Assembly: GCA_903813345.2 (NCBI GenBank)
Contig: CAIIXF020000001.1
Span: 6,696,001 to 6,760,000, forward strand
DNA length: 64,000 nt
From: Owenia fusiformis
Lineage: Eukaryota
Direction of reading: 5' to 3'
Both the position numbers and the translations under genes were made by a program. Numbering within the stretch: position 1 is the stretch's first letter; the number at the start of each line of letters is the position of its first letter. Shown in pieces: positions 27,427-64,000 of this stretch. The notes under the pieces were generated by a model. The model saw only the letters and a program-made list of their open reading frames with translations. It ran no database searches and was not told the DNA's origin.

Positions 27427-30400
27427 ATGGATACAATATTAAGGATAATACTTTGTTCCTGTGCACTGATAGCTTCAGGTAAACATTTGTTTGAAACACT
27501 TTTTGAGGTTAGTATAACTTTTAAATTTAGGCCAAATTAATAATGAGTTATAAGTATGAATGACTGACCATATAAGAGTGGACCATAGGATATGCTTTTT
27601 TTAGCATAGACCACAAGTGTTTCCTCAATAGATTCGACTTTTTCTGTTACCTTATATCTATGTCTGAACGTAATTTCACCAACCGTGCTTCAAGAAAACA
27701 GACAAGAGATTTTTTTATATTTAATCAGAAAACTTTTGTCCTTCGTTATTCAGGTCAAGCCTCTCGCCTTAAAAAATGTCGCTGTATACCTGTTCAATTG
27801 TTACGACATGGAAATGTGACACTATCTGATGGTAGACTCTGTGGTAGTGTGGCAAAATACACATGTGGCCCTGGCCTAGCACTAATTGACCCCTCAAAAA
27901 ACAAAAAGACATGTGTAGATAGAGTGTGGATTCCTAGGGGTGCAATCAGATGCAAATCGTTTGGACAAGGTAATTTTGACATAGAAAAGCCTTAATTTCG
28001 TTTTATTATTGGTATATTAAGTTAGTCAGTGAGAATGGTATGATAAGCAATTTTCCTGTATTATTAAAAAACAGAATTTACAGCATCCGATTTACTTACA
28101 GCACCACCAGATATAAGAAATGGAATACTTCATGAACAAGCAATAGGAGAACAAAGAATTGGTCCCCAGTCTCAGAGATACTCATACAATGACTTTATGC
28201 CCCTTGCATGTACTTGTGGTTATCCAATACTTCCTGAAGGTGCATCAGTGTATCCAAATAAGGACCACTATAAATGTGGAGAAAGGGTTTCTATGGACTG
28301 TGGAAAAGCAGATTCTAAGAGTTCTATCTATTGTTCAGGTCAAGGATGGAACTGGAATGAACAAGTGAACTGTTTACGTAAGTTTTATAACATTCATAAA
28401 AGTGAAACATTTGATATAAATGTGCACCATGTAACTACATACGTAAGTTTGTATAAGTATATGAAAATATGTGTAATTGAAATACTAATGTTGTATAATG
28501 TTTCAGCATCAAAGTGCAAAGGTTTCCAGTCTCTGTGTCAAAATGGTGCACATTGTACCATTAATGGGGAAACTAGTTATCCATATTGTGAATGCTTACC
28601 AGGAACATATGGCATGTTTTGTGAAAGGTGAGAATCAAAATATGCTTAATATTTCACTGATAATAGCTTGATCATTGTACTGACTATTAAATTGAGTTTG
28701 TAAACATAAGGAAATATTATTGTAGAGTTTAATAGTTTCATGGTTAATCAGAATTTGAATCATTTTATACTTTACTATCTAAATTTGCTCAATGTTGCCA
28801 TATAAATTTAAAAGCTAAAATCTCATCTTGATTGGGGGAAAAATAAACAATGGAAAGGTTGTGACCAATACTAATTTGTTACATTCTGAAATTAACGATG
28901 ACAAATATTAGTACATTGATTTGTTGTTTTATTGATCTCTTCACTGCTTTGTATTCCGAGTTTAATGACATTCAACAATTACTACCTACTGGTGGATGCA
29001 AACCATGTTTTCATCAGCGATAACAGTAATCCTTGCAAAATCTGACATCAACATCATGACATCAACTTGTACATTTATCTCATGCAATAATCATGTCAAT
29101 TCATTTCTTTGTTCTAATAATATTATATCATGAATATTTCTTGTCTCTTATTAAAACGGCTGATATTGGAGTATTATTAATGAAGATTTGTACTACTATT
29201 TCAAATATATGAATTGACTTTATTGTGTATTCAATTATTGATCTAGTACTTGATCAAGGTAGCTGAACTCAATGGACTGTTAATTTTACTAGACTACTAT
29301 TATGAGGCCAGACAGGGCCTCCTATCAATTTTATCAATATTATAATCTTTTATTATTCCCCATCCTTTTTCTATCCTACTTCCAACTAGCTTTAAACTAT
29401 CTCCTACATGTTCCTACTAAGGATCTGGGTCAAACTTGGCAAGACATTTTTTTGTCCAGGTCAACGTCAAAATATAGGTCATATTGAATTGTTTTCAAGA
29501 TTCTCAAAGATTGACACTACACTTCAATAATGTTTTTGCAGATAGATATTAGTATTTTAATAGTGTTTGCTTTTCTTTAAACATCATCTACAAGTTCTCA
29601 GAAGTTCAAATCTGATCTGACCTTAAATAATTTGACCGTATGACCTTTGTAAGATAAAAAGTTGATTTTTCAAATTGATTTTTGGATCAAAGTTAGGTTG
29701 GCCTAAGGTCAAGGTCATCAGAGAAGGCCACAAACAATGTAATCCAAGTTTCTCAAAGTTTGAGACTACAAACAAATATTTTGGGTTGAAAATCAGGATA
29801 TACAGGGTGTCTCAAATCATTTACCCAAAACTGTGTCAACAGCACAGATAAACCAATCTATATTTTCATACATTCTTTGCATGGTCATGTAGCCAAAACA
29901 TGAAAGTTTTCTCCCAATACACCATTTTTATTTCAGTCTTGAATTATTGATGCTTTAACCCTTTACCTTTTACACCACATATTCAATGTAACCCCATATT
30001 TCGTGAGTATCCTTACTGCTACATTGTTCATCACATTTGATAGTAATTCCATTAGAATGTCTTGGATTTCCCTTTAGATGTTGCCCTTAAGTTGTTCTAG
30101 GTATTTTTGCTTGGAATGAGCATTAAAACACTCATTCGAAAAAATTCAGAGAAAGATATTTGAGGATGACGATGGTAGAACAAACACAGAGAATCAGATC
30201 AATTATCAGCAAATGATTCAGGAGTTACCTTCCAGAGTTACGCAGGATAGCCTGGAGACCAAATGATATCCAAATGAAACACAGTGGTCTCAAATTGATT
30301 GAGCCCCTCTACGCACAACAAAGGCTACACTAGAATCACAACCAATGCAGTTTCTTGAACGTCTGACCTCTCTGTATAAGGGGGCTATAAGACATTGTGA

Positions 30401-37314: not shown

Positions 37315-40094
37315 GTTTTCAGTGTCGCAAATGTGCATGACATCATAAACAGTATAATGTATATTACATTGAAATAAATAAATCAGGGATAGTTAATCTG
37401 GAGTGTTTGTACAGTCATATATTAGGCACAATTCATCTGAAACATTGTGCATATTCATATTTTATATTATAACTGTAACCTGTGACACTTTTTCAAATAA
37501 ATGAACAAGGAAAATGCTTGTATTCATGCAGAATTCACAAATAGATTTTGATATCTAAAAATAAACTTTTCTGCACCCCCATGTATCCAAATATTAAACA
37601 AGACTTCCTGTAAATATTACCAGAAATGAAGGGACTGTTGATGGACCTGGCTTAATGGTGACTGCACTTTATCCGTAAAGAACATTGTGTGGAAAACTTT
37701 AAAAAACAGACATCTGAAGCAAGACCATTCGTTATATTCAAAATAAAATGTTATATGATTAACATCTGAGAACATTTATTATGTTTAAAGCCATACCTTA
37801 TGAGATAGTGAAAGGTTCATGATCATCATCCCCTCTCCCAGCATGTTTGGCAGCTCCAAATATATCTAGAAGATAAATCATAATAAATCAATTATTTCCA
37901 CTTTGAACAATCATTCTAAAAGATAATGAGCAGATCCTTTATAAAATTACAATTGTAGAGTAAATCTTTAAAAGATCAAACTCACATCACTTACTAGTCT
38001 TTAAAACTCTACCCAATTGACATAACATTCTTACTCGTATCGTAATAATTGAAAACAGAGTTCATCCAAATACAAGTTAGTTGGCATTTGGCTCTGTTAT
38101 GTTGTTACTTTGGGCTGTGGATTCATGCACATAATTAATCAGTTCAGTGTCAGCTATTGTCAAGCAGATGATGCCATCTATTCATTGTAACAGCATTTCT
38201 AAAATGTTAAAACATAGTAGTGTCAATGATAAATATTAAAAAAATAACCAGACATGAACATGCAAAATGTCACCACCTGCAGTTTGTTACAGATGGTGAA
38301 GTCGGAACACCTAATTCTGAGCGCCAACGGGCCAACACCATCCACAAAAAGTAGGATCTATCATCACTTTTTGTGGTGACATAAAAAGTGTTTTTATTCT
38401 CAGTTAGATTATAATACAAAACCACAAACCAAACATGAAAATACTCAAAATGACTCAAAACTCTAAACAATATAAATAATATAAATAAATAATATAGTCA
38501 TGTAAAACCACAAAGTACTCAGGTTACAAGTATTTCATCAATTGTGGTTAGAATGATGGTCTACAATTTCTATCGAGATTGCCAACTCTTAGACTGTATA
38601 TTACCTCAGACTGGCAATCTCTAGGAAGCATCATTGTCTCTATCTCCCTCTACTGATGTCCACATTCATTTTATAGCCCCTTTGAGGAATAGTATTTATC
38701 ATATTATCTTCACATATCTTTTCATGTCCAGTTCTTGCTGAAACACACATTTTTAATGGCATTTATTAGAAATAGAAAAACAATAAAGCAGAGAAAAGAT
38801 GGACAATCCTCGATTTAATAAAAAGGACCTACGGTCCTGTGCTCACACAGGGTTTTGTGAAGCCAATGATGATTGACTTTATACATGAGAAAGTTCCCTG
38901 AAAATGACAAAGTCCTACTTTTTGTCAAATTTTATAGAGTAAACCAAAAACTGTAATTTCAAGAGCTTTTATTATTTACAATATACACCACGTTCCTGCT
39001 CTGAATTTGTCATTTTATGGGTTGTTTATACACTGTTAACTTACAGTTAATAGTTCGAGTGGCTCTGAGGCATATATACTGAAAAACACGAGATTGGACT
39101 TAAAATTATGAACTTGGATATCTCAGTCGGTAAGTTTACAGCTTATATTCTGCTTTTAGTAAACCACCTGGCAGATTTGACCCAGTCTTTTTAACCATAC
39201 ATATATACGTCACCGAATGGAACTAGTTGAAAGGTCTTGCCTACAGGTGAGAAAGCGAACATGATGTATTTCCCATCCGCCATTTTTTTGTTATTGTTAC
39301 TGCAAAATTTTGCAAATCGCCTTGACGTAACCGTCATGCTATAATAGCGTGTATACTGTCTGAATATATCTACCCTGTGGAGTCTAGTTATGAACTATTC
39401 TCTGCCTAGTATAGACTACATTACAGCCCAGCCCCAAATATTGGTGCCTGTGACAGGCCGTGTAATAAATCATTTCAAATCTACCACGGTGACCCTTCTT
39501 CCATATTTCGATGACAAACTCTGATTGGCTCAGTGAGATCATGGGCTTTCAACTAAGCCCATGGTGAGATCAAAGATGTATTGTAAACTGGAAGAGTGAA
39601 GACGAAGCTCTCTTTTAAGAAGTGAAGTCGAACGAATGCAAAGGGTAGAATATATCATGCTTATACAATTATGTTCACAACAGGTCGCAAAAATTAGTTA
39701 AACAATAGCTCTGTTCACTGTGTTCATTACATATTACCATCCAAAATGTTTGACACCTGTCATTATTTCTATTAATTTATTTATATTTATTTGTAACTCA
39801 TTCTTCACTTATTATGGTAAATCATGCAATCAAAATTGCAATTGTGTAATAATAATTAATGTAGCCATATATGTTTTTATCTTGATCTGACAGATGTAAT
39901 TGCTGTCAAATGAAAGATCCAATAACAGCTTTTGCGACAAGTACATACTCGTACCGGAATTATGAAACAAAGGACACAAAAATCTTTCATCATCTTCAAC
40001 TACCACACATGTTGCATCAGTAGATAATTTAAAATCGGAGAATTTATTTCCTATTACCAAAAAGGCACATATAATCAAATCAAATAAAATAGAA

Positions 40095-41432
40095 ATGGAA
40101 TTGATATCAGTGTGCATCTTTTTTCTGCTTTTGTTGGAGGATGCTATTTCGACTCAGTTAATAACCACAGGGGTAACAGTAAAAGCCAACATGAATGTTA
40201 AGATAACTGACGACCCAGATGAAACAATTATGAAGATTAACACGTGGAACCATTGCATGCTGCTATGTGTTCATAAACAAACCTGTAAGGAGTTTAACTA
40301 CCATGGTGATTCCTCCAGATGCGAGATGTATACGTCAGCGGGTTGCAAGAACTTTGATAATTCAACAGGGTGGAGATTTGGTTACATCGAAGCAGGTTTA
40401 AAAATTACATATTACTGATGATTAGGATAATTTTATTAATATTTTGAATTTGAAACTGTATGTACATGTTATTTTGCAAATACTAATATGCCTCCTTGAA
40501 CTCAAATTTTTTAGATATTCACGGGTTGTCATCGAAAAATTTGTCCAGCTTGATGAAGCATGGTATTTCTTGTAAAAACACTAAAAAAACTTCACAAATT
40601 ATTTTTTAACTCATACATCATTATTCCAAGGAAAATTAACTACTCCATGCAATGAGTAGTTCATCTGTTTAACTGCTCCATTAAGCTGGACAATAATTAT
40701 TACAGATTAGACTGATGTTTTACTATATAACCAAAGATTTCTTGAACTCGACCTAGCTTAAGTCAAAATAATTTATTTCAGATCAGCAAAGAAATACAAC
40801 AACCAGGAACATCAATGTAGCGCTTAATAAACCTACATATCAGTCTGGCACCTATAATGGGATTCCTTATGGGGAGCCTGCTGGTTTCGCAGCAAATGCA
40901 GTAGATGGTAGTACAAACACAGAGTATAGGTCTGGTTCATGTTCGCATACAAACCATGAACTAAATCCATGGTGGATTGTAGACCTTGGAAAGTCATATC
41001 ACATTGATCGAATTGTTATTTGGAATCGAAAATTGAAAGGTAAGAGGCCATCTAAAATTGAATTTTGGTATAGCTATTAAACATTGGTGAAAGCAATTAA
41101 AATTGAATTTTGTTACCACAAAGTATATGCATTGACAACCACACAGCACTGCTTGATTCAGCTACATGTAACTCAATGACATTTCTATTTCAAAAGCACA
41201 CAGACTCCATGACTTTTCTATTGACACCGCCTGTCACTTTGATGGAGTGAACCCAGACAACACAAACTGGACGAGACAGCATCTGCATGTTGGAACATTG
41301 GATGTTAATCCTAAAGTCATGCCACTTCCTAATTCCGCAGTTGGCAGATTCGTAAAGATAGAAAAAACAGTTCCTACGTATGCAGATAAGAACATCTTAT
41401 CTCTATGTGAAGTTAAGATCTATGTAGTCTAA
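40095..41432 (+). CDS. Secreted PAN/apple + F-type lectin (fucolectin-like) protein (~264 aa)
   Basis: Exons 40095-40395, 40782-41039, 41197-41432 (phase 1, 795 nt). Signal MELISVCIFFLLLL; PAN CMLLC...CKEFNY...RCEMY; FTL motifs NVALNKPTYQS, AVDG, CSHT, PWWIVDLG, WNR, GRFVKI, LSLCEVKIY. Confidence 0.9.
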
Positions 41433-51848: not shown

Positions 51849-54086
51849 CTGTAATTACAAAGGAGAATGTTTATAGTTTAATAAAACAAATCTTTCCCAA
51901 TAAAATGGACATATCATTCCCATATTATTCTAATACCCTGTTATTCACAAAGTTCACAAAGCTCTCCTTTATGAAGCCATGACTGGTGAACATGCAGTTA
52001 AAGTGATCACTTAAATATTATTTGGGAGAGCCTAGATTAGAATTTAATTGGAATGGACAATTCATGGAGTCATGACATAAAACATGTATGGATTTTAGAA
52101 TAAATGTAGTTACATGTATATCAAAGGTAGTCATACATACAAAGCTCTAAAATTACCAATAAGGTGAATATGATTTAATATTAAAGAAGTAATCGAGCAG
52201 AAAAATGAAAAAAAATGGGTGCTGCTGTGACTTCATTTTACTAATAACTAGAAATTAGTTAGGAGAGTATAGGATAGAGAACATATTTATTTCAAAACAG
52301 CACAACAATTTTTTTTCATTTTTGTACTACCTCTCTGACGATGTTAAAATAGTTCTAAAATTCCTGGGGCATGATCTGAGAAAGCTTCAGAAACTAGTTT
52401 GATCTGTAATACTTAATCAACAACGCCAAAACTTTGATACAACATAAATCATAACATTTACAAATGATTTTACCATTGAAATTGGTAATCAATGTTGTAT
52501 TTGATTTGTTTTTTAGGTAAAATCTCCTCGGAGCAACAAATTGTAAAACGTCAAGATTGATAATCACTGGGTTCAACATTACTACACGATTTCAAGATGA
52601 CGGTGTCAAATATTATGTTGATTTCTGGCGAGTTAACCAATATCATAACTTGCTATCTAAAAACAAGATAAAGAAATATGTAAGAAATTCAATTTTATCG
52701 AATAAAACATCACATCGACATGTGGGTTTCGTTTTAAGGCGTTGAAAATTATGAATATGGGGGTGACGTCACTGCATAGCTAGGGTGTTAATAAACAATT
52801 TCTGATCGGAAGACCTTGCAAAATCCTAAGTTTTCACTTATTTAAAACAGTTTGTTACGAATTACTTAATAAACTTAAAGAACTGCATGAGGTGAGCACA
52901 GGAGGCACAGATTGCACTGAACGAAGGCTAGGAGACTGCTTATTCATGCACATACATGTAAGTGTGACTAAAATACATTAAAACACTATTACGAGGACGT
53001 ATAATTTAATGAAACCATCCAAATTATATATTTATATAAACTAAAACCTATTTTCATAATTAAAAGCCTAAAGTTGAACATCTGTCAAAGTATTGGTCCT
53101 ATTGCTCGAGCACTGATCAACCTTTTGCAAGTGTTTAACTACCTTAACATTCCCTCTAGAAACAAAATTCCTTGTCCCATATATCTTAACAATCATCATT
53201 ATCAAATGATATCCATATTATCATGATGAAGAATACATGGAACAACGGAACAAAGAACATTCATTACTATGGAAAATGAGTGGATAGGATCGTCCTACAC
53301 TGATGTGGAAAATGTGTAAAAGTCTGTAGGCTTGAGCTCAATTTAATATAATATGCAATGAGATAATACATTCTTAATACTTACATCTGAAGTGTTTCTA
53401 AGAAATCAGGTAATCTATTGTCATTTATATATTTTGTTGTTTGTGATATATCATAGCTTTCTATATTTCACAATAATTATCATTAATATTCAATAATAAT
53501 AAATATATTATGCTATTTTTGTCAGATGGATGTGTTGGCTCTAAATCTTTCATTCCTTGTTAATTACATAGAAAAGTTGCTTATGAAAACAATTGAAGAG
53601 GCATTTCTGCTGACAAAGGTAATCTTCAATAGGTCAGGTGAAGTTCTGTTTGGTTAAATATGATCCGTATAAAAACTGTATGGTACTGCACAACATATTT
53701 AATCGAATTGATTAGAATACAAATCTGTTCATATAATCACAATATATAGTTAAACATTTGAAACTCCAAAAATTACACTGGATGAAAAGAATATACCATG
53801 TATGACTAGGAATACAGGAAATCAATTCCTAAATTGAAAAGGGTCTCTTCCTCCATCCCCAGAAATCGAAACAATTATTACATTACACCCCCCCCCCCTC
53901 TTTCTCTGTGGTCTTATATGAACAGTGGATCAATTATCTCCACACATCCAATGACCTGTGTATTTTTCAGTGAAATCTTAACTGGATTTTCTTGTTCCTG
54001 AAATGGTTTATGAAGTTCATATATTTAGAACAAAACATTGATAAGCATCAGAATGAGACCAGGTACTCATAAACTGTATTTTGATT

Positions 54087-54695
54087 GGGGGTCATTAACA
54101 GAACTTTCGTAAAGTTACGAATTCGCAAGTCAATTGTTAATTTTACGAATTTGGTAAATGTGCATTAACAGAACTTTTGTAAAGTTACGAACAATTCGCA
54201 AAGTTACGAAAAAATGACGTCACGTATGCTTTCATTCGTAACTTTAATAGCACCTCAGACCCTTTCATAACTTTGCGAATGGCACATTTCTCATCCAATT
54301 CTTATGTAAGGTATACAGGTTGGCAAAAAGAAATTGTTCTCTATATGCATGCTGAGTTTCAAGCTAAAATATCTACCTATTTGTACATGATAAGCAAATA
54401 TGTTCCTGAGCTGGGAATCTTTGAAATCGCGGAGACAGGTTTGATCACAGCGCGCAATGATATCAAATGACATCATATTTTTATTTGAGCTAAATAAGAT
54501 AAAAGATGACGTCACAATTTGAAATTCGTTTACGAACGATAAAACTTATGAATGACTTACGAAAGTGTTCTGTTAATGGCCGATTTGTAACTTTATGAAT
54601 TCGTAAATCATTCGTAACTTTTTAAATATTTACGAATTTCATAAAGTTACGAATTACGAATTCGTAACTTTGCGAAAGTTCTATTAATGACCCCC
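54087..54695. mobile_element. PIF/Harbinger-like MITE with multiple subterminal ttacgaa motifs
   Basis: gggggtcattaacagaactttcgtaaagttacgaattcg / cgaattcgtaactttgcgaaagttctattaatgaccccc. Confidence 0.75.
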
Positions 54696-55456
54696 TGGTT
54701 AATAGAGCATACCAAATAAGGTGTTGAAATTAAGTATTTCAATAATCGTATTCAGGTGTTTGCACTTTAAATTCCAATCTTTCAATCTAGAAAACTAGAG
54801 CTTTTGTCATCTGATAATGAGTTTCTAAATTTATCTATCATTGCTACAGTTCAAAAGCAATTAATCATTTAATTAAAAATAAGAACTTATCCCATGTCTC
54901 AACAGCCCAACATCCTGTATTAATGTATCTTAAAGTTTAAAATTAGAAAACACATTAAATCTGAATTAATATATTAGATAAGAATATCCAACCATTAAAA
55001 GGGAACAATGGAAGGGATTATGATCAAAGAACTAACACATTTTAATTGATATCACTTAATATATTTTATTCTAAAGAATCTATTAGAATGTGATATAATT
55101 CCCCAAAGCCTCTTCAAGGGTATCTTTGTTGAAATGACATGAACAGTTAATCCATTGAAATAATCTATGATCCCTTGTTGATGATCAACACTTGAAAATA
55201 TCTTAAAATGAACTTGATCGGGTAGTGAACATTAAAAGGAAATAGCAAGGCAGAGACCTCACTTTGATAAACAATCCTTGAAATTAATTGCAATTTTATT
55301 TGTTTCGAGGATATTTTGTAGGCTTATTCCCTTTTTCTTTTTTACAAGTATGCATGGTTTATTTAATTATAAGAAGACTTGCAGGAGAGCAGGTATGTGA
55401 GATTTGATTATAAAAAGACTTACTGGTAACAATAAAGCTGTCACATGACAAAATAA

Positions 55457-56064
55457 ACAAGGCATTAACATAACAAAATGTCACCACTAATATTATGACT
55501 TCAATCTTAAGTCAGATTCGAATTTCTGAGAACTTCTAGATGATTTCGATAAAAAATTGGTCAATTTGAAGCAAGTTGAAAAAAGACTCTTTTTGAACTT
55601 GAGAAGGTCTCTGAAGGTCATATATCAATTTGGTCAATTTGAAGCAAGTAAAAAATACCTTTTTTACCTTTTTTAACCTTGAGATGGTTAATTATTTCTT
55701 TGACCTTGAGAAGGTCATTGAAGTTCAAATCTCAAATCTATAGTCAGATAGACTATTGAGAACTTGTAGATGATTTTGAAAAAGAAATTTGGTCAATTTG
55801 AAGCAAGTTGGAAAAATACCTTTTTTGAACTTTTTTGACCTTGAAAAGGTCATTGAAGGTCAAATCTTAAATCTTAAGTCAGATTTGAACTTCTGATAAC
55901 TTGTAGATGATTTAAAAAACTGAAGTCAGTCTAAACAGTATTTGTTAAGTTATTGGAAGTTGTATAAGAATTTGTTACAGACGCCGCCCACCGATCACCA
56001 ACCACCACTGCCGATTGTAGTCAGAAAAAATGGAGACCATAACAATATGTCACCACTTTTGACA
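55457..56064 (+). mobile_element. HINE-like element with ~3-4 internal repeats
   Basis: acaaggcattaacataacaaaatgtcacc start; gtcaatttgaagcaag repeats; ggagaccataacaatatgtcaccac end. Confidence 0.75.
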
Positions 56065-56719
56065 TCACTTTTTGCTAATTTGGAAATTGGACACTTATAT
56101 TTGCCATTTGTAATTTATTTAGAATACACGGTCACTAAACACAGGTTGATATGCGGGGGAGGTGACCTTCTCAGTAAAGCAACCATACATTTATAAGGGG
56201 GGGGGGGCATTACATCACAACGTCACATTTTTTATATCACATTGCTATCATGTAACATGATATTTGAAACATGATTCATAATCAATTTTTCATTCATTTT
56301 ACCAATAAATTGCCAGAAATTTTTCCTTCTCAATGATTCAAAAGATTCTCCTAAAAATGTTCATCTAACATACTGTTAACATCCCTTTCACAGTTTCAAT
56401 CAATATTTCACCTAGATTCTGGTGTCTTTCTACTGGAGCACCATAAATGATTTGACTTATGTATGCTTACATATTTAACCTCATATTTACTGTCATAAAT
56501 TTTAATACAGAAGAGAAGAAAATAATAAAATGCTAATATTTCTTATTATAGAATTGCACTATGTTACACTATAAAAATGAATATAATGAATGGCTTTGAG
56601 ACAAGTTTTTTCCATTAGTTCCATCATTCACTTATTTGTGATATCAGAGATACCGTAACCAGCTTTGGACCACTTGAGATGAAGTTTCACATTCATCGCA
56701 TTAGATTATATTGCTTTAA

Positions 56720-57321
56720 AGGAATATTCCTTGCCAGACCCTTTCTCTCTTGATATGGTAGCTATAATCATATTTATAGTTTCCATATTTAGCAAAACAT
56801 GGGAAAATGTTTTAATATGGTCAATATTGATAATTTAAAAATCTAGTGCTTATTTCCAGTGAGCTGCCATCTTTTAAGATTTCTTGCAGGAAGTGATGTC
56901 ATCAACTCTCAACTTCTATAACCTTGCCCATAACAGCATAGGAAAGTAGCACAAAATCACTTCTAGACAAGTGATCATTACTTTCTGTGCAAAAATATTT
57001 TCAGGGCTTGTCAACTTAGAATAAAAGAAGAGATTTTCAGAAGGATTAAATAAGATACAAAGTTGAAAAAGAATATTTAGCTGGTTTTGTAATTCTTAAT
57101 AGCTCCTCACCTAATGCTATATGCAAAGTTGAGAGTTGATGACATCACTTCCTGTGTGAAATTTTAAAAGATGGCAGCTTACTGGAATTGAGCATCACAT
57201 TTCTAAGTGATCAAATTTGACCATATCAAAACATTTTTGCGTGTTTTGCTAAACATGGCAAGCATATATATGGTTATAGCTACCATATGAGGAGAGAGAT
57301 GGTTTGGCAAGGAATATTCCT
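56720..57321. mobile_element. TTAA-flanked MITE (Kolobok-like AG..CT termini), ~200-bp TIRs
   Basis: TTAA|aggaatattccttgcca...tggcaaggaatattcct|TTAA; inner arms caggaagtgatgtcatcaactctcaactt / aagttgagagttgatgacatcacttcctg. Confidence 0.8.
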
Positions 57322-58224
57322 TTAATTAAATGTGCAGTTTGATCAAATACGAAGTGTTATTGAGTGAAATAAAGAATGCAAATATTTACTTTTTATATTA
57401 CTTTATTTCAAAATCACAAAACAAAAAATGTTTATAGTATAAACCCCAGAAGATTTAAAGATTACAGTGTTGCGGAGCTTGGCTCAATAAGTTCAGAAAA
57501 AATGGAATTATTATTCCAGTGATAAGTTACCACTTCCTTTCATTAGAAGATAAACTAGAATTTTCATCCTAGAAATAGTTTAATCCTAAGGGAATGAAAA
57601 ATTAAGACATGGAAATATGTGTTTTTCATTCTCTGTTATAAAATAAACAAGGCTCTTTAATGTTAAGTCATCAGAAAAATATTACAAACTGGTTTTTATA
57701 ATGTGTGGATGCTTAATCAAATGTGAATTCCTTTCATCAAATACACCAGGTTCATACGCTATAAAAATAACTGGTGGTTACAGATAAACTAGAGGTACAT
57801 GAGATTTGACAACTCAGATTTTATAAGGTGTACTATCTAATCCTTTTTGCAACAGCCAATATTTTTTTATTCACATTCATCTAATTGACAAATAAATAAA
57901 ATACAATAAGACAAAACACATCAAAGTAGCGATGATACCCAAAAATAGATTTTTATACGATGAAGGAAACTTGAGAATTTGAAATAAACCTTTTCAGAGG
58001 TTTAAATTAAAGAATGTTTTGGACATACATACATACAAACAGGCAGATAAAATGAACAGACAAGCAGATACGCAACCACTCAACCAAGTTATCGTCCACA
58101 TCTTTATTGGCAGGGACTTAATAAAGAGCTGAGTATAAAAGATAAACACCATTTAATTATCAATATTACAAACTGAAAGAGTGAGATAAATTGTCTTTGT
58201 ATTCATAATTTCCATTGATGTTAA

Positions 58225-58416
58225 AGGGGCAGCAAATAACATTTAAAAGAATTTAAAAAGTTGGAAATAATCTTTTCACAAAATGTGCACATATTTTCTT
58301 CACAATCCTAAAATGAATACAAAAAGTAAATAAAGTAAAAACTTTTCTGAAAATTGGCATGAAATGAAAATAATATTGTAAAATTGTGACAATTCTTTAA
58401 AAGTTTTGTTGTCCCT
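58225..58416. mobile_element. Small TTAA-flanked MITE
   Basis: TTAA|aggggcagcaaa...tttgttgtccct|TTAA. Confidence 0.5.
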
Positions 58417-58806
58417 TTAAATAATCTTTAGTACTATGAATAAGTTGGGATTATCTCTGCTATGGCTAGTATATATAGGAGCAACAATGATTACATTATC
58501 ACTACAAAACAGTGAAGTGAAAACCAAGTGAACTGATGCACAGAGATAGGGATATTTACAGTTATAATATTGAAACAGTCTGCAAGTGCATTGAAGCAGG
58601 TAAAACCTTTGTTGCATTTTCATTAAATAATAACATAAGACTGAACATGTCATTTTTTAAGATTGCAAGCATTTTACAATGTTAGGGATAATAACTTTGA
58701 CCTTTGAATTATTTATTATATACTGGAGGAGTTAAATTGTACGTCGATTTGTAAAAGGTTACATTATTTTAACTGAAATATTTAAAGTATAAAAGTATAA
58801 GGATTG

Positions 58807-59981
58807 ACAAGGCATTAACATGACAAAATGTCACCACCTAAAGGTCAATTTGAAGCAAGTTGAAAACAGACCTTTTTGACCTTTTTTGACCTTGAGAAGG
58901 TCATTAAAGGTGAAATGTCAAATCTAGAGTCAGATTTGAATTTCTGAGAACATGTAGATGATTTTGAAAAAAAAATAAGTCAATTTGAAGCAAGTTGAAA
59001 AAAGAACTTTTTGACCTTGAGAAGGTCATTGAAGGTAAAATGTCAAATCTAAAGTCATATTTGAATTTCTGAGAACATGTAGATGATTTTGAAAAAAAAA
59101 TTTAGTCAATTTGAAGCAAGATGAAAAAATACCTTTTTGACCTTTTTTGACATTGAGAAGGTCATTCAAGGTCAAATGTCAAATCTAAAGTCAGATTTGA
59201 ATTTCTGGGAACATGTAGATGATTTTGAAAAAAAAATTTAGTCAATTTGAAGCAAGTTGAAAAAAGACCTTTTTGACCTTTTTTGACTTTGAGAAGGTCA
59301 TTGAAGGTAAAATGTCAAATCTTAAGTCAAATCTAAAGTCAGATTTGAATTTCTGAGAACACGTAGATGATTTTGAAAAAAAAATTTAGTCAATTTGAAG
59401 CAAGTTGAAAACAGACCTTTTTGACCTTTTTTGACCTTGAGAAGGTCATTGAAGGTCAAATGTCAAATCTTAAGTCAAATCTTAAGTCAGATTTGAATTT
59501 CTGAGAACACGTAGATGATTTTGAAAAAAAAATTTAGTCAATTTGAAGCAAGTTGAAAACAGACCTTTTTGACCTTTTTTGACCTTGAGAAGGTCATTGA
59601 AGGTCAAATGTCAAATCTAAAGTCAGATTTGAAGGTCAAATGTCAAATCTAAAGTCAAATCTAAAGTCAGATTTGAATTTCTGAGAACATGTAGATGATT
59701 TTGAAAAAAATTTAGTCAATGTGAAGCAAGTTGAAAAAAGACCTTTTTGACCTTGAGAAGGTCATTGAAGGTCAAATGTCAAATCTAAAGTCAGATTTGA
59801 ACTTCTGAGAACATGTAGATGATTTAGAAAAAAATTGAAGTCAGTCTAAACAGTATTTGTAAAGTTATAGGAAGTTGTAAGAAATTGTTACAGACGCCGG
59901 ACGCCAACCTCCAACCACCAACCGCCGTCACAAAAAAAACGGAGACCATAACAATATGTCACCACCGTGGTGACATAATAA
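58807..59981 (+). mobile_element. Full HINE-like element carrying a 7-unit satellite array (126-178-bp units)
   Basis: 5' acaaggcattaacatgacaaaatgtcaccacc; units start at about 58844, 58979, 59105, 59241, 59389, 59537, 59715; 3' hairpin tatgtcaccac-c-gtggtgacata then ataa. Confidence 0.85.
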
Positions 59982-60681
59982 ACTGTATACACATATCTAG
60001 GGGTGATATTTCATGAAAATTGTGAATTTGAAGAATCTTATCAGACTCTACAGGTAGAGCATCAGGTGCTATGATTGACAAATGTAAATTGAACAGAGAA
60101 AATGGTTGTGTTTTGCCAGTGCTCCATTATGGGCTTTGAGTTTTGGACCATATGATTATAGAATATTGTAATGTGATTTATGATAGAGTGCAAAATATAT
60201 GATGGTGTATAAAGTATCTTTTCTAGCATATTTCAAGAGGGTTTTTCTGAAATAAAATATATGACAGCCATTTTAACTTTTTAGCAGCAGTTTTAAAATT
60301 TGCTTCTCGAGGGGATTACAAAACCCATAAATTTGGGAAGCAGTAACTGAGTTATCACCTGGACAGACAAACAGATAGAAAGTTTCCCTCTATCTCCACT
60401 TGAACTTTGTTTGGTGGGATAATTATGCATTAACTGCAATATTCAATACATCAATTTAGCCATAGTTTGACTTGTATTTAATAAATGCATTCTTATTTTG
60501 TTGTTTTTTCAAATAGGCAACATATCAAAGAACGGACTGGCGCAAATTTAAGATACAAACGCAGAAGAGCTGAAATTATTGATATACAGTGAACTGAACT
60601 GAACTGATTATTTTGAATATAAATCACACCTGGAACAATCTACTCGTACAAGGATTTATTAAAGACCATAAACAAAATAAG

Positions 60682-62700
60682 ATGAACATGTACAACAAAC
60701 TAAAGTGGAACATGTTGATCCTGACAATTATGAGTACACAATCTACTGACTCCAAATATAAGACCAATTCTACAATATCAACTACTACAGAGGCTACTGG
60801 CGATGTCGCCATATTGGATGGTTCAATTAATCAAAATAAATCAGGAGTTAGTGCAAACCCAAATGTCAATGAAACAGAACAGCCAAATGTAAGTGCAAAC
60901 CCAAATGTTAGTGAAACAGAACAGCCAAACGTTAGTGCAAACCCAAATGTTAGTGAAACAGAACAGCCAAATGTTAGTGCAAACCCAAATGTTAGTGAAA
61001 CAGAACAGCCAAACGTTAGTGCAAACCCAAATGTTAGTGAAACAGAACAGCCAAACGTTAGTGCAAACCCAAATGTTAGTGAAACAGAACAGCCAAACGT
61101 TAGTGCAAACCCAAATGTTAGTGAAACAGAACAGCCAAACGTTAGTGTAAACCCAAATGTTAGTGAAACAGAACAGCCAACCGTTAGAGCAAACCCAAAT
61201 GTTAGTGAAACAGAACAGCCAAATGTTAGTGCAAACCCAAATATTAGTGAAACAGAACAGCCAAATGTTAGTGCAAACCCAAATGTTAGTGAAACAGAAC
61301 AGCCAAACGTTAGTGCAAACCCAAATGTTAGTGAAACAGAACAGCCAAACGTTAGTGCAAACCCAAATGTTAGTGACACAGAACAGCCAAACAGGAGTGG
61401 CCAAAAAAAACCAATACGTTTGAAAAGAAATGTGTATGAAACACTTTTAAACAAAGCTAAATGTGAAAACAATCCCGTTAAGCCTCTGTTCATCAATGAA
61501 ACATACGTACTAATTACTCGGGAAGATTATGGATGGCTAGTGCTCTGCATGAACAAAATCACCCCAAAAAAAGTTTGTCTGCCACCATACAACCCCAACA
61601 GTAGAAAATATGAAATTTATACAACAATGGGGATCATAACCGAGATTTATCTCTGCATTCCTCTATGTCTGCTTGGTATCGTTGGCAATGTTCTCTCATT
61701 CATAACTCTTTCTCGTGAAAAACAAAACACTAGCATACTAATTTTAAAATCCCTAGCTATAATTGACAGCCTATATTTGTTGTTGGTGGTTGTGTTTGAA
61801 CCTTACTACACTGCATATCATGATACTGATTGGTTGGATAAATCCTCACTTGACAAAGTCTCGCATTCATTCACAAAAGCTGCTACATATGCAGTGCCAG
61901 TCATTAACATGGCCCAAATGTGTAGTGCTTGGCTCATGGTTCTCCTCACCATTGATCGCTATGTTGCTATTTGCCATCCTTTCAAGGCTATCATTTATTG
62001 TACGTTAAGACGTGTTAGGGTTGGGATCTGTATCATCATCTTTACCTCGATTGTATATAACATCCCCATGTTCTGGGAGGTCAGTTTCACACAGGTCTAC
62101 CATGAGTGCCTTAAATTGCATATGTTCACAAAAGGGGTAGTCCGTGGCTCGGTGGGCCAACATATCCTTTTCAGAATCATCTATGGCCTTGCAGGCAATC
62201 TCATATTCCGTAATCTCCTCCCGGTTCTACTTGTCATTTCTTTCAATTGTCGCCTTATCCACTCTTTGAGAATCGCACGGCGTAACCATGACAAAATGAC
62301 AGCAAAACAAGATAACGATCTTGATAACCGAGATAAAAATATCACAGTTACTCTTGTGTCTATCTCATTTGTTTATCTCATCTGCATTCTACCAATGTTG
62401 GTTTTGAGCATGCTTGACATCCATTACAAATCAGTGCTTACACACAAAAATGACTATATTATTGATTATTATTATAAAGATGAAGGAGAAATTGCATCTT
62501 GGAAGGTCTACCTTAAGTTTGAGTTGGTTGTTCGCTTGTTGGTACGTGTCAACTCTGCCGTTAATTTCTTAGTTTATTGCACAGTCAGGAAGGGATTCAG
62601 AGGGAAACTAAAAAGCCTTTTCAAGAAAAGCATCAAAAGGGAAAGCTCTGTTCAAACCTTTACAAGTAATGTCTTAGAAAAATCAAATCAGAGAATTTGA
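60682..62700 (+). CDS. Rhodopsin-class GPCR, FMRFamide/peptide-receptor-like, single coding exon (~672 aa)
   Basis: First ATG at 60682 within ORF 60613-62700; splice acceptor at 60516. Seven hydrophobic segments with GIVGN (TM1), LAIID (TM2), IDRYVAICHP (TM3), YNIPMFWE (TM4), CILP (TM6), NSAVNFLVY (TM7). Confidence 0.92.
   Translation: MNMYNKLKWNMLILTIMSTQSTDSKYKTNSTISTTTEATGDVAILDGSINQNKSGVSANPNVNETEQPNVSANPNVSETEQPNVSANPNVSETEQPNVSANPNVSETEQPNVSANPNVSETEQPNVSANPNVSETEQPNVSANPNVSETEQPNVSVNPNVSETEQPTVRANPNVSETEQPNVSANPNISETEQPNVSANPNVSETEQPNVSANPNVSETEQPNVSANPNVSDTEQPNRSGQKKPIRLKRNVYETLLNKAKCENNPVKPLFINETYVLITREDYGWLVLCMNKITPKKVCLPPYNPNSRKYEIYTTMGIITEIYLCIPLCLLGIVGNVLSFITLSREKQNTSILILKSLAIIDSLYLLLVVVFEPYYTAYHDTDWLDKSSLDKVSHSFTKAATYAVPVINMAQMCSAWLMVLLTIDRYVAICHPFKAIIYCTLRRVRVGICIIIFTSIVYNIPMFWEVSFTQVYHECLKLHMFTKGVVRGSVGQHILFRIIYGLAGNLIFRNLLPVLLVISFNCRLIHSLRIARRNHDKMTAKQDNDLDNRDKNITVTLVSISFVYLICILPMLVLSMLDIHYKSVLTHKNDYIIDYYYKDEGEIASWKVYLKFELVVRLLVRVNSAVNFLVYCTVRKGFRGKLKSLFKKSIKRESSVQTFTSNVLEKSNQRI
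60847..61392 (+). repeat. Coding minisatellite, 13 x 42 bp (VSANPNVSETEQPN)
   Basis: 546 nt of near-identical units gttagtgcaaacccaaatgttagtgaaacagaacagccaaa(c/t), in frame within the GPCR N-terminus. Confidence 0.95.
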
Positions 62701-64000
62701 AATATGTTTACATGTACCATTCCTCTTGGTTATGGAACAATCACTTTGAAAAGAAAGCACAGGTTTATCATCTAAGTGAAACACAGACTGATGGTTATGC
62801 ATACCACACAAGATATTCCAGTGAAAATTTCACTAAAAAAAACAAGGCCATATGATATGTGGAGAAAAGCCATTGCACTGTTCATAAAAGACAAAGTGAG
62901 AGGCAAATATAAAAACTAAATGCTTACTGGTATATAGTAACATGAATGGTGCAAACCTGATCCATAGTGCGAAGAGCTCCACCCATTTTGTGGGGGGCCT
63001 TCGTAAAAAGTTCTGAAATCAGGGTGCTTGCTAGGATTTGGACCTTTTTGTTATAATTGAATTGTGAACCACATTATTTTCCTATATATGAAGAACATTA
63101 AGCTGATCTGGATGTAAACCTAAGTGATCCCAAATCAGTGCTTATTTTGCACCCTATAATAGAATAATATCATTATGTATACACCTATTTTATTCAGCTA
63201 TAGCGGGCTGCATTAAAACATTGTTCAGTAAATAAAACTAGGGTTATATTTCAGTAGTGTATTCCAGGCCCAGGATTCCAGGCTTGGTTAAAGACATCTG
63301 GGTGGTCAACATGTATCTATTATCTCCTAGTTTAAGGCAGCATTACTTGTGATTAGTCAATTAATCGAGTATGATCGAGTAAATAATTAAGTTTTGTAAC
63401 TCATGCTTTGTAACCACCTTGATTGAACATAGATGATAATACCAAGATGTTGCCGGGAAAATGTTTTCTGATGGGAAAAAGTGTAGAAGATAATAACTAC
63501 TTATATGAATAAATGTTTGTAATTCCAAGCTTTCTGTTTAATATGCTACACAAGCATTTATATTGCATCCATGATGTCTATCTGAATGAATGCATTGTAT
63601 CATAGATGAACAACTATTTATTGCTTATAATAAGTAACATGCTGCAAGTTAAGAACCAAATTAAATTCAAAATGTGAACTGTAAAATGATAAAGTAATAT
63701 TAAACCTACAATAATACCAATGAAAAACAATTTGTAAATAGGCTGTTTCTTGTTTTTATGAAATGGCCTATATGACAGATTAATGTCAAAAGTTTGTAAA
63801 ATTCTGTAAAAATAGAAACAATAATAAAATGTTGGGTGAAAAAGAATTGAATTTCTGTTTGGAGTATCTGATTGATCCAGTTTTAATTACTTATGGTGTT
63901 GTACCATACTGAAGACAATCCATCAAAAACTAATACCCTTGAAGCCCCATCTTTCTTTGGTTATAAAACAGAAACATGATATAACATAATTGAGTAATTG

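Follow-up and report, generated by a model that had tools for sequence, protein, structure and literature searches.

In the protease-activated receptors PAR1-4, whose tethered-ligand residues are conserved, extracellular serine proteases cleave the N-terminus at the cell surface. Coding variable-number tandem repeats are known from other receptor genes, such as DRD4, with a 48-bp repeat in the third cytoplasmic loop, and GP1BA, with a mucin-like 39-bp repeat. Here we describe a gene of the annelid Owenia fusiformis that invites comparison with both groups: it encodes a receptor assigned to the class-A (rhodopsin-family) G-protein-coupled receptors (GPCRs), whose long N-terminal tail carries a tandem repeat dense in N-glycosylation sequons (N-x-S/T, x not P) and, closer to the membrane, the furin-type motif RLKR. 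The gene lies on the forward strand at 60682..62700 of a stretch of 64,000 nucleotides (contig CAIIXF020000001.1, positions 6,696,001 to 6,760,000), hereafter the window, which is AT-rich animal DNA with a G+C content of 32%. An earlier note, made from the sequence, had proposed that the repeat is a removable pro-region and that the end exposed by its cleavage acts as a tethered ligand or cap. GPR37, a human class-A orphan receptor with a long ectodomain, is reported to be processed by furin (between Arg54 and Asp55) and by ADAM10 (PMC12315979). Class-A GPCR expansions confined to particular lineages in Lophotrochozoa have been read as candidate chemoreceptors (2025, PMC11886862).

We consider it fairly probable that the Owenia gene encodes an ordinary orphan class-A GPCR issued from a species-specific expansion, and that a coding minisatellite has recently lengthened its glycan-rich tail. 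The parts of the gene are listed below (aa, amino acids; ORF, open reading frame; TM, transmembrane helix; ECL2, second extracellular loop; pLDDT, predicted local distance difference test, the confidence measure of the structural model).

60590..63169, strand not assigned: extent covered by run X1 (type guessed) at a depth of 4.5-13, the likely extent of the transcript
60682..62700, forward: receptor coding frame, a single uninterrupted ORF of 672 aa plus stop (codons 60682-62697)
60682..60744, forward: signal-peptide-like start as read from the sequence, aa 1 to about 21, with Lys6, Lys8, the core MLILTIM and then STQS
60745..60846, forward: Ser/Thr-rich unique stretch, aa 22-55, with sequons at N29 and N52
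60847..61392, forward: coding minisatellite, 13 units of 42 nt, each encoding VSANPNVSETEQPN, with 24 sequons
60889..60894, forward: GTAAGT, a donor-like hexamer following AAT at the start of repeat copy 2
61393..61428, forward: basic linker RSGQKKPIRLKR, whose start is straddled by the sequon N237-R-S and which carries RLKR at 61417-61428
61429..61620, forward: juxtamembrane module, aa 250-313, with Cys261, Cys289, Cys299, the sequon N272-E-T and C-x-P-P-Y-N
61621..62637, forward: seven-helix core and helix 8, aa 314-652, with DRY at aa 425-427, an ECL2 beta-hairpin and NFLVY replacing NPxxY
62638..62697, forward: cytoplasmic tail, aa 653-672, of low pLDDT

How does this layout compare with the systems above? 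Like DRD4 and GP1BA, the gene has an in-frame minisatellite by which a disordered or glycosylated segment of the receptor becomes longer or shorter, but the Owenia repeat, known from one sequence, codes for N-glycosylation sequons and is situated in the distal part of a class-A GPCR's extracellular tail. A cut at RLKR would, as in PAR1-4, create a new N-terminus a few tens of residues ahead of TM1; however, the protease would be an intracellular convertase, so that the Owenia receptor would be constitutively processed, and the residues after the site are poorly conserved. With GPR37 the receptor shares its status as a class-A orphan and a long N-terminal ectodomain with a furin site, and an N-terminal fragment may likewise be shed (PMC12315979). 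The GPR37 site is described there as highly conserved and its cleavage as shown experimentally, whereas the Owenia motif is known from sequence and is absent from the closest paralog, P0004. GPR37 also differs in having no tandem sequon repeat.

By both sequence profile and predicted fold, the receptor is a class-A GPCR. The Pfam model 7tm_1 matches aa 337-628 with 61.8 bits (cut-off 30.5, E 9.3e-17). From an 84-row alignment, AlphaFold2 modelled aa 250-672 with a pTM (predicted template modelling score) of 0.85 and a mean pLDDT of 85.9. The model shows seven long helices and the ECL2 beta-hairpin; of the helices that follow TM7 (at P0002 379-386 and 388-403), that at 388-403 is taken as helix 8. 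Foldseek relates the model with probability 1.00 to many class-A structures, the matches being peptide GPCRs: the best are 8wz2_R (E 6.2e-10) and many NTSR1 chains, and the closest by fold are the QRFP receptor, NTSR1 and the opioid and orexin receptors. By sequence, the closest solved receptors, with E values of 1e-10 to 1e-9, are GPR139 (E 8.7e-11), NTSR1 (E 1.2e-9) and the motilin receptor, and nearby ESM Atlas clusters carry names such as putative FMRFamide receptor, dmsr-1-like and TRH-receptor-like. With GPR139, NTSR1 and the motilin and QRFP receptors nearest by sequence or fold, the description 'peptide-receptor-like' given in the earlier note is a fair one. The FMRFamide-receptor-like/DMSR/Srw-like receptors, GPR139, NTSR1 and the QRFP receptor thus provide the best sequence and fold matches and share the ECL2 beta-hairpin seen in the model; the Owenia receptor differs from the FMRFamide-receptor-like, GPR139, NTSR1 and QRFP receptors in its identity to them of 16-22%, its NFxxY, the scarcity of the Cys at position 3.25 (C3.25) in the Owenia family and its long tail.

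Family-wide conservation was read from an alignment of 153 rows, comprising the window protein (P0001) and 152 relatives. The Arg of DRY (aa 425-427) is present in 153 of 153 rows, and N336 (N1.50) and D362 (D2.50) are invariant. The TM7 motif is NFLVY, and NFxxY replaces NPxxY in 128 of the 153 rows. Cys414 and Cys476, the putative TM3-ECL2 disulfide pair, are both present in the receptor, while C3.25 occurs in 24/153 family rows (absent in 129/153). Every class-A hallmark checked is kept in the rest of the gene.

The reading frame has an in-frame stop at 60595-60597, 5' of the start codon. In the start, MNMYNKLKWNMLILTIMSTQS, two Lys precede a hydrophobic core of 7 residues (MLILTIM), after which come small polar residues. 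The earlier words 'weak signal-like start' suit what the sequence offers here, namely Lys6 and Lys8, this core and the polar residues that follow. The KLKW of the receptor start aligns with the clearer signal peptide of P0004, and from there the two proteins can be aligned through TM6, TM7 and the tail; the leader is short, positionally homologous to that of P0004, and followed by 28 sequons N-terminal of TM1. The Ser/Thr-rich stretch noticed beforehand is present at aa 22-55, and the three-Cys segment of about 65 aa proves to be the 63 aa after R249 (Cys 261, 289 and 299), TM1 starting at about aa 314. The collection's model of the receptor (P0003) ends at aa 554 (..NRDKNI), before TM6, which concerns 62341-62700 of the window. 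At aa 554 the frame meets no stop in the DNA and runs on to aa 672, aligned with P0004; a contig of run X1 (61754-62864) is unbroken, with no splice where the collection's model ends. We prefer the 672-aa reading because of this unspliced contig and the open frame that aligns with P0004 down to the tail; the public model probably ends too early, at aa 554.

Tandem Repeats Finder places the array at 60847-61392, with a period of 42, 13.0 copies, 96% matches, 0% indels and a score of 1008. Allowing up to 3 mismatches, the 42-nt consensus has 13 matches in the window, all inside the array, against 0 expected (100 shuffles). The array is young, since six of its 13 units are identical to the consensus and only 12 of 546 nt depart from it; the codon differences among units are 6 synonymous and 6 non-synonymous. 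All 13 units are in frame and 24 of the 26 possible sequons are retained. The whole protein has 30 sequons, of which 28 precede TM1 (aa 29-272), with 24 of these in the array plus N237 at its end; the two others of the receptor are on cytoplasmic loops. The earlier count of 13 copies of a 14-aa repeat with about 25 sequons is thus reproduced, as 13.0 copies of 42 nt and 24 array sequons plus N237.

A search with aa 1-320 in a collection of 5.8 billion sequences (8000 candidates scored, 369-1176 aa) returned no match except the window's own protein, and the repeat unit was in no other protein of the same search. A literature search for tandem sequon repeats in GPCR N-termini found no relevant work. 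The copy number of the array is probably variable. Two antisense ORFs of 221 and 187 aa that run across the array were discarded as by-products of the stop-free repeat, not genes.

An exhaustive HMMER search over 1.84 billion representatives gave 5013 matches at E <=1e-3 and 27 at E <=1e-30. P0004 (548 aa, 64% identity) is also an Owenia fusiformis protein and is encoded on the same 62.2-Mb contig as the window protein. The 13 named proteins among the 20 top matches looked up are all from Owenia fusiformis. Neither this search nor that of the collection found any sequence between 64% and 100% identity, or any ortholog from another species. Several paralogs share chromosomes, and their accession numbers run close together. 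Judging from these sequences, the nearest relatives are paralogs from the same species rather than orthologs elsewhere, which fits a species-restricted expansion, apparently of FMRFamide-receptor-like/Srw-like receptors. The Owenia group is in this respect similar to the Lophotrochozoan expansions described before (PMC11886862), although the main text of that study contains no occurrence of Owenia, N-terminal tails, signal peptides or glycosylation (0 each). A literature search combining 'Owenia fusiformis' and GPCR showed none on this receptor family, by title or abstract opening, among the matches listed. Because the receptor belongs to a lineage-specific expansion, we favour a fast-evolving, possibly chemosensory receptor, which fits better than a conserved neuropeptide receptor.

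The tail is organized in the same way in many paralogs: a signal peptide, a long, variable and sequon-rich tail, a juxtamembrane Cys module and the seven-TM core. Thirteen relatives were inspected by eye. A hydrophobic leader opens all 12 whose start is intact, the remaining one, P0048, being a partial model that lacks it. All 13 have a long stretch rich in Ser, Thr, Asn and sequons, with unrelated sequences between paralogs, and most have a Cys segment directly before TM1, for instance C-x-PP-[YF]-N or CC-PP-[YF]-N. N-termini of at least 100 aa occur in 17 of the 147 rows having Asn at 1.50, with 2-12 sequons each versus 28 in the window receptor. Of 20 long N-termini, 5 contain internal repeats with z >3 against shuffles, and no two of these share a unit (z-scores: P0001, 40.8; P0009, 9.8; P0124, 8.7; P0004, 3.7; P0015, 3.4); that of P0004 is degenerate, of about 22 aa, and also contains sequons. 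The window paralog is the youngest and most regular case. This distribution suggests that the glycan-rich tail is a family trait, which the minisatellite recently enlarged in the window paralog. In the simplest reading, what counts in the glycan-rich, disordered distal tail kept by the family is its composition, while its sequence turns over by tandem duplication.

Two paralogs have tails of a particular build. In the partial model P0048, an 11-aa sequon repeat (TEYMVTYNRST) comes first, KKRR next, and after it a Cys-rich region of WPF repeats; P0016 has PKRRPRRP immediately before its Cys segment.

The juxtamembrane module is conserved where the distal tail is variable, and has the pattern N-x-T ... 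C-x-P-P-[YF]-N immediately ahead of TM1. N272, T274, C299 and P302 are invariant in a 5-sequence alignment of paralogs, and a Cys is found within 35 aa before TM1 in 116 of the 153 family rows. As a juxtamembrane Cys is present in 58 of the 61 rows that have a Cys in the ECL2 column, this co-occurrence suggests that the module may be tied to ECL2 as a lid. The window receptor has Cys414 in addition to its N-terminal Cys, and five extracellular Cys altogether.

From these observations we can sketch how the ordinary receptor we favour would have arisen and would work. Its tail would have grown very recently, as an in-frame 42-bp minisatellite underwent slippage or unequal exchange, so as to hold 24 of its 28 extracellular sequons within the array. 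The short signal peptide would take the 313-aa N-terminus into the endoplasmic reticulum, where many of the N-V-S sites would be glycosylated. The role of the tail would be set by its composition rather than its sequence, candidate roles being folding and surface delivery, protection from proteases, or steric shielding of the putative Cys-module lid. A furin-like convertase may cut at RLKR, though not as a conserved or required step.

Is the gene transcribed with its array? Our evidence comes from three RNA runs of the same species (6-12% of each was read) and from run X1, whose type is guessed. In the three RNA runs the depth is 0-0.9 per bin, with small non-zero values in bins 60346-63017, array included, and a depth of 0 in the unique flanks 57674-58675, 60012-60345 and 63018-63351; this represents a handful of reads over the gene, a number too small to define joints, strand or transcript ends. 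The run index has no run recorded as RNA that contains the receptor stretch. In X1, contigs with a depth of 4.5-13 join 60590-60915 to 61378-61679 and extend unbroken over 61754-62864, then over 62864-62971 and 62976-63169, and the flanks have a depth of 0.06 (60012-60345) and 0 (63352-63685). Such a local enrichment in a run of 368 million letters would be expected of a transcript. The join in the first contig leaves out 462 nt (11 x 42) and keeps the register of the repeat; rather than a GT..AG intron, it reflects either a collapse by the assembler or a short allele. We conclude that the receptor gene is intact and probably transcribed at a low level. The earlier note had counted transcripts that begin or splice downstream of the repeat as evidence against its own proposal; the X1 contigs and the few RNA reads do not point to such transcripts, covering sequence both upstream of the repeat and within it. 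The donor-like GTAAGT of copy 2 reads GTTAGT in the other 12 copies, and no GT..AG joint or spliced form using it appears in the X1 contigs or the few RNA reads.

Several points weigh against the interpretation of an ordinary receptor with an inflated tail. A full R-x-K-R in the non-repeat part of the N-terminus is uncommon by chance (0.02-0.04 in shuffles), and RLKR sits exactly at the border of the variable tail and the conserved module, where it may have a processing role. RNA depth is very low and the X1 run is of guessed type; the X1 contig moreover collapses the array. The collection's model stops at aa 554, the 672-aa reading resting on the open frame and the P0004 alignment. The 6:6 split of synonymous and non-synonymous differences gives no signal of selection in either direction. 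Finally, we infer the glycosylation, the use of the signal peptide and the surface topology from the sequence.

According to a first alternative, the array is a selectively neutral coding minisatellite of variable length, tolerated in a disordered tail, functionless and possibly slightly harmful, while the receptor works or decays regardless. The extreme youth of the array, the absence of a purifying signal in the 6:6 split, the very low expression and the fact that the unit is in no other protein (8000 candidates scored, 369-1176 aa) all agree with this. However, sequon-rich tails are a family trait, so that extra sequons fit an existing role; 13 of 13 units are in frame and 24 of 26 possible sequons survive; and the class-A hallmarks checked are all kept elsewhere in the gene. 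We therefore regard a neutral array as rather unlikely.

The proposal of the earlier note deserves closer scrutiny. It holds that the glycan repeat is a pro-region, cut in the secretory pathway by a furin-like convertase between RLKR and the following Asn, and that the shed glycopeptide or the new end NVYETLL... would amount to a shield release, a cap or a tethered agonist. The motif is indeed present: RLKR (aa 246-249, 61417-61428) is a full R-x-K-R consensus, and the preceding KKPI supplies extra upstream Lys (KKPIRLKR). It lies in a linker adjoining a predicted disordered stretch, N-terminal of TM1 and 63 aa before it, and the 24 residues that follow have pLDDT <50, so that by sequence cleavage at RLKR by a furin-like convertase may occur. 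There is no Cys between the leader and RLKR, and a cleaved fragment would therefore be free and released. The site is also rare by chance: shuffling the whole N-terminus yields at least one R-x-[KR]-R with a probability of 0.006, shuffling the non-repeat part of it with one of 0.02, and shuffling aa 238-313 with one of 0.044. Basic clusters separate the glycan-rich and Cys parts in P0016 (PKRRPRRP) and in P0048 (KKRR, after the sequon repeat), and the furin cut of GPR37 between Arg54 and Asp55 offers a precedent, although that site is reported to lie in a highly conserved region (PMC12315979), which is not the case of RLKR.

Comparison with relatives speaks against a conserved function of the site. 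In P0004, the only close relative found in the searches, the aligned residues are PLER: when IRLKRNVYE is aligned with IPLERSRYD, the Ile, the Leu, the last Arg and the Tyr are kept, and Arg246 and Lys248 are not. The earlier note had counted a lack of conservation of RLKR in relatives against its own proposal, and this is what P0004, as the one close relative, shows; in the Cys module, C299, P302, N272 and T274 are invariant in five sequences. More broadly, a furin motif past aa 20 is found in 3 of 109 relatives with N-termini of at least 30 aa, versus 0.42 expected from shuffles. We rejected this as a family-wide enrichment, since it disappears against permuted-motif controls: for five permuted motifs of equal composition the counts among the 109 are 1, 1, 2, 1 and 3, largely within those same basic clusters, and basic clustering accounts for the motif count. 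The furin motifs of the three relatives are moreover at unrelated positions (aa 31 of 192, 102 of 125 and 45 of 58). RLKR is hence neither kept in P0004 nor specifically enriched in the 109 others.

The residues downstream of the site are the proposed ligand. Of the first 10 after RLKR, only Y252 and one acidic residue are shared with P0004, in a part where the alignment is shallow. The new N-terminus has a model confidence of 42-47, and no docking into the pocket is seen in the model. An ESM Atlas search with aa 238-315 gave no usable match. With PLER in P0004, no motif enrichment and weakly conserved, low-confidence residues after the site, the pro-region and tethered-ligand mechanism finds no support. 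We hold a functional pro-region cut by a convertase to be distinctly unlikely, and a tethered ligand to be quite improbable.

A narrower version would confine processing to this paralog alone, as a newly evolved self-processing receptor: the glycan shield built by the minisatellite would, along with a recently gained furin site, constitute a pro-domain that can be removed. At the surface the receptor would then be masked or clipped, and the Cys module, maybe disulfide-tied to ECL2, would serve as cap or agonist. We judge both this scheme and the part it would give to the Cys module very improbable. Last and slightly less probable still is the absence of the array from the mature protein, through splicing (for instance at the GTAAGT of copy 2, which does open with a consensus donor hexamer) or through a downstream start (for instance at Met290, an ESM Atlas record starting at aa 290): the frame is open through 13 units into the seven-TM core, the sole in-frame acceptor option in the units (AACAG followed by CC) has no pyrimidine tract, the X1 contig leads from 60590 by way of copy 1 into the array and beyond it as far as 61679, its join being in register and not of the GT..AG kind, the start of P0004 (KLKW) aligns with that of the receptor, and the collection's model counts the array as coding.

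Other elements of the window were recorded in passing. A satellite-like array with units of 136-148 nt, in 6-10 copies per family, occupies 58781-59900, and a partial second block is found 3 kb upstream at 55500-56010. It is very high-copy, with a subsampled RNA depth of 235-480 and many back or skip joints, such as 58842 to 55786; an Rfam search of 53000-64000 gave no match, this array included. Two short elements with inverted-repeat ends, at 54087-54695 and 56716-57325, have arms of 45 nt (91% complementarity) and 200 nt (85%); covered by many slightly divergent RNA reads, they look like miniature inverted-repeat transposable elements (MITE-type). On the forward strand, an open frame at 39966-40418 contains a PAN/Apple domain (PF00024, E 1.5e-7) and is probably an exon of a secreted or adhesion protein. 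Two Cys-rich open frames at 27576-28631, also forward, are probably exons, with no Pfam match at threshold; one of them ends in an EGF-like CxCxxGxxGxxC pattern, as judged by eye.

What would these readings mean for the biology of the family? If cleavage at RLKR proved real and functional, the gene would bear on the origin of protease-regulated GPCRs, and otherwise not; a self-processing receptor, if true, would be a case of PAR- or GPR37-like regulation arising de novo in a species-specific receptor expansion. If, as we favour, the gene encodes an ordinary receptor with a recently inflated tail, it would be a clear case of receptor ectodomain remodelling, in which an in-frame 42-bp minisatellite adds two dozen glycosylation sites at one step. 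Should copy number vary among individuals, they would provide a natural length series for the effect of N-terminal glycan load on a class-A receptor. The ordinary-receptor reading would also mean that the tails of this family keep their composition and not their sequence, which would be useful for annotating annelid GPCR expansions.

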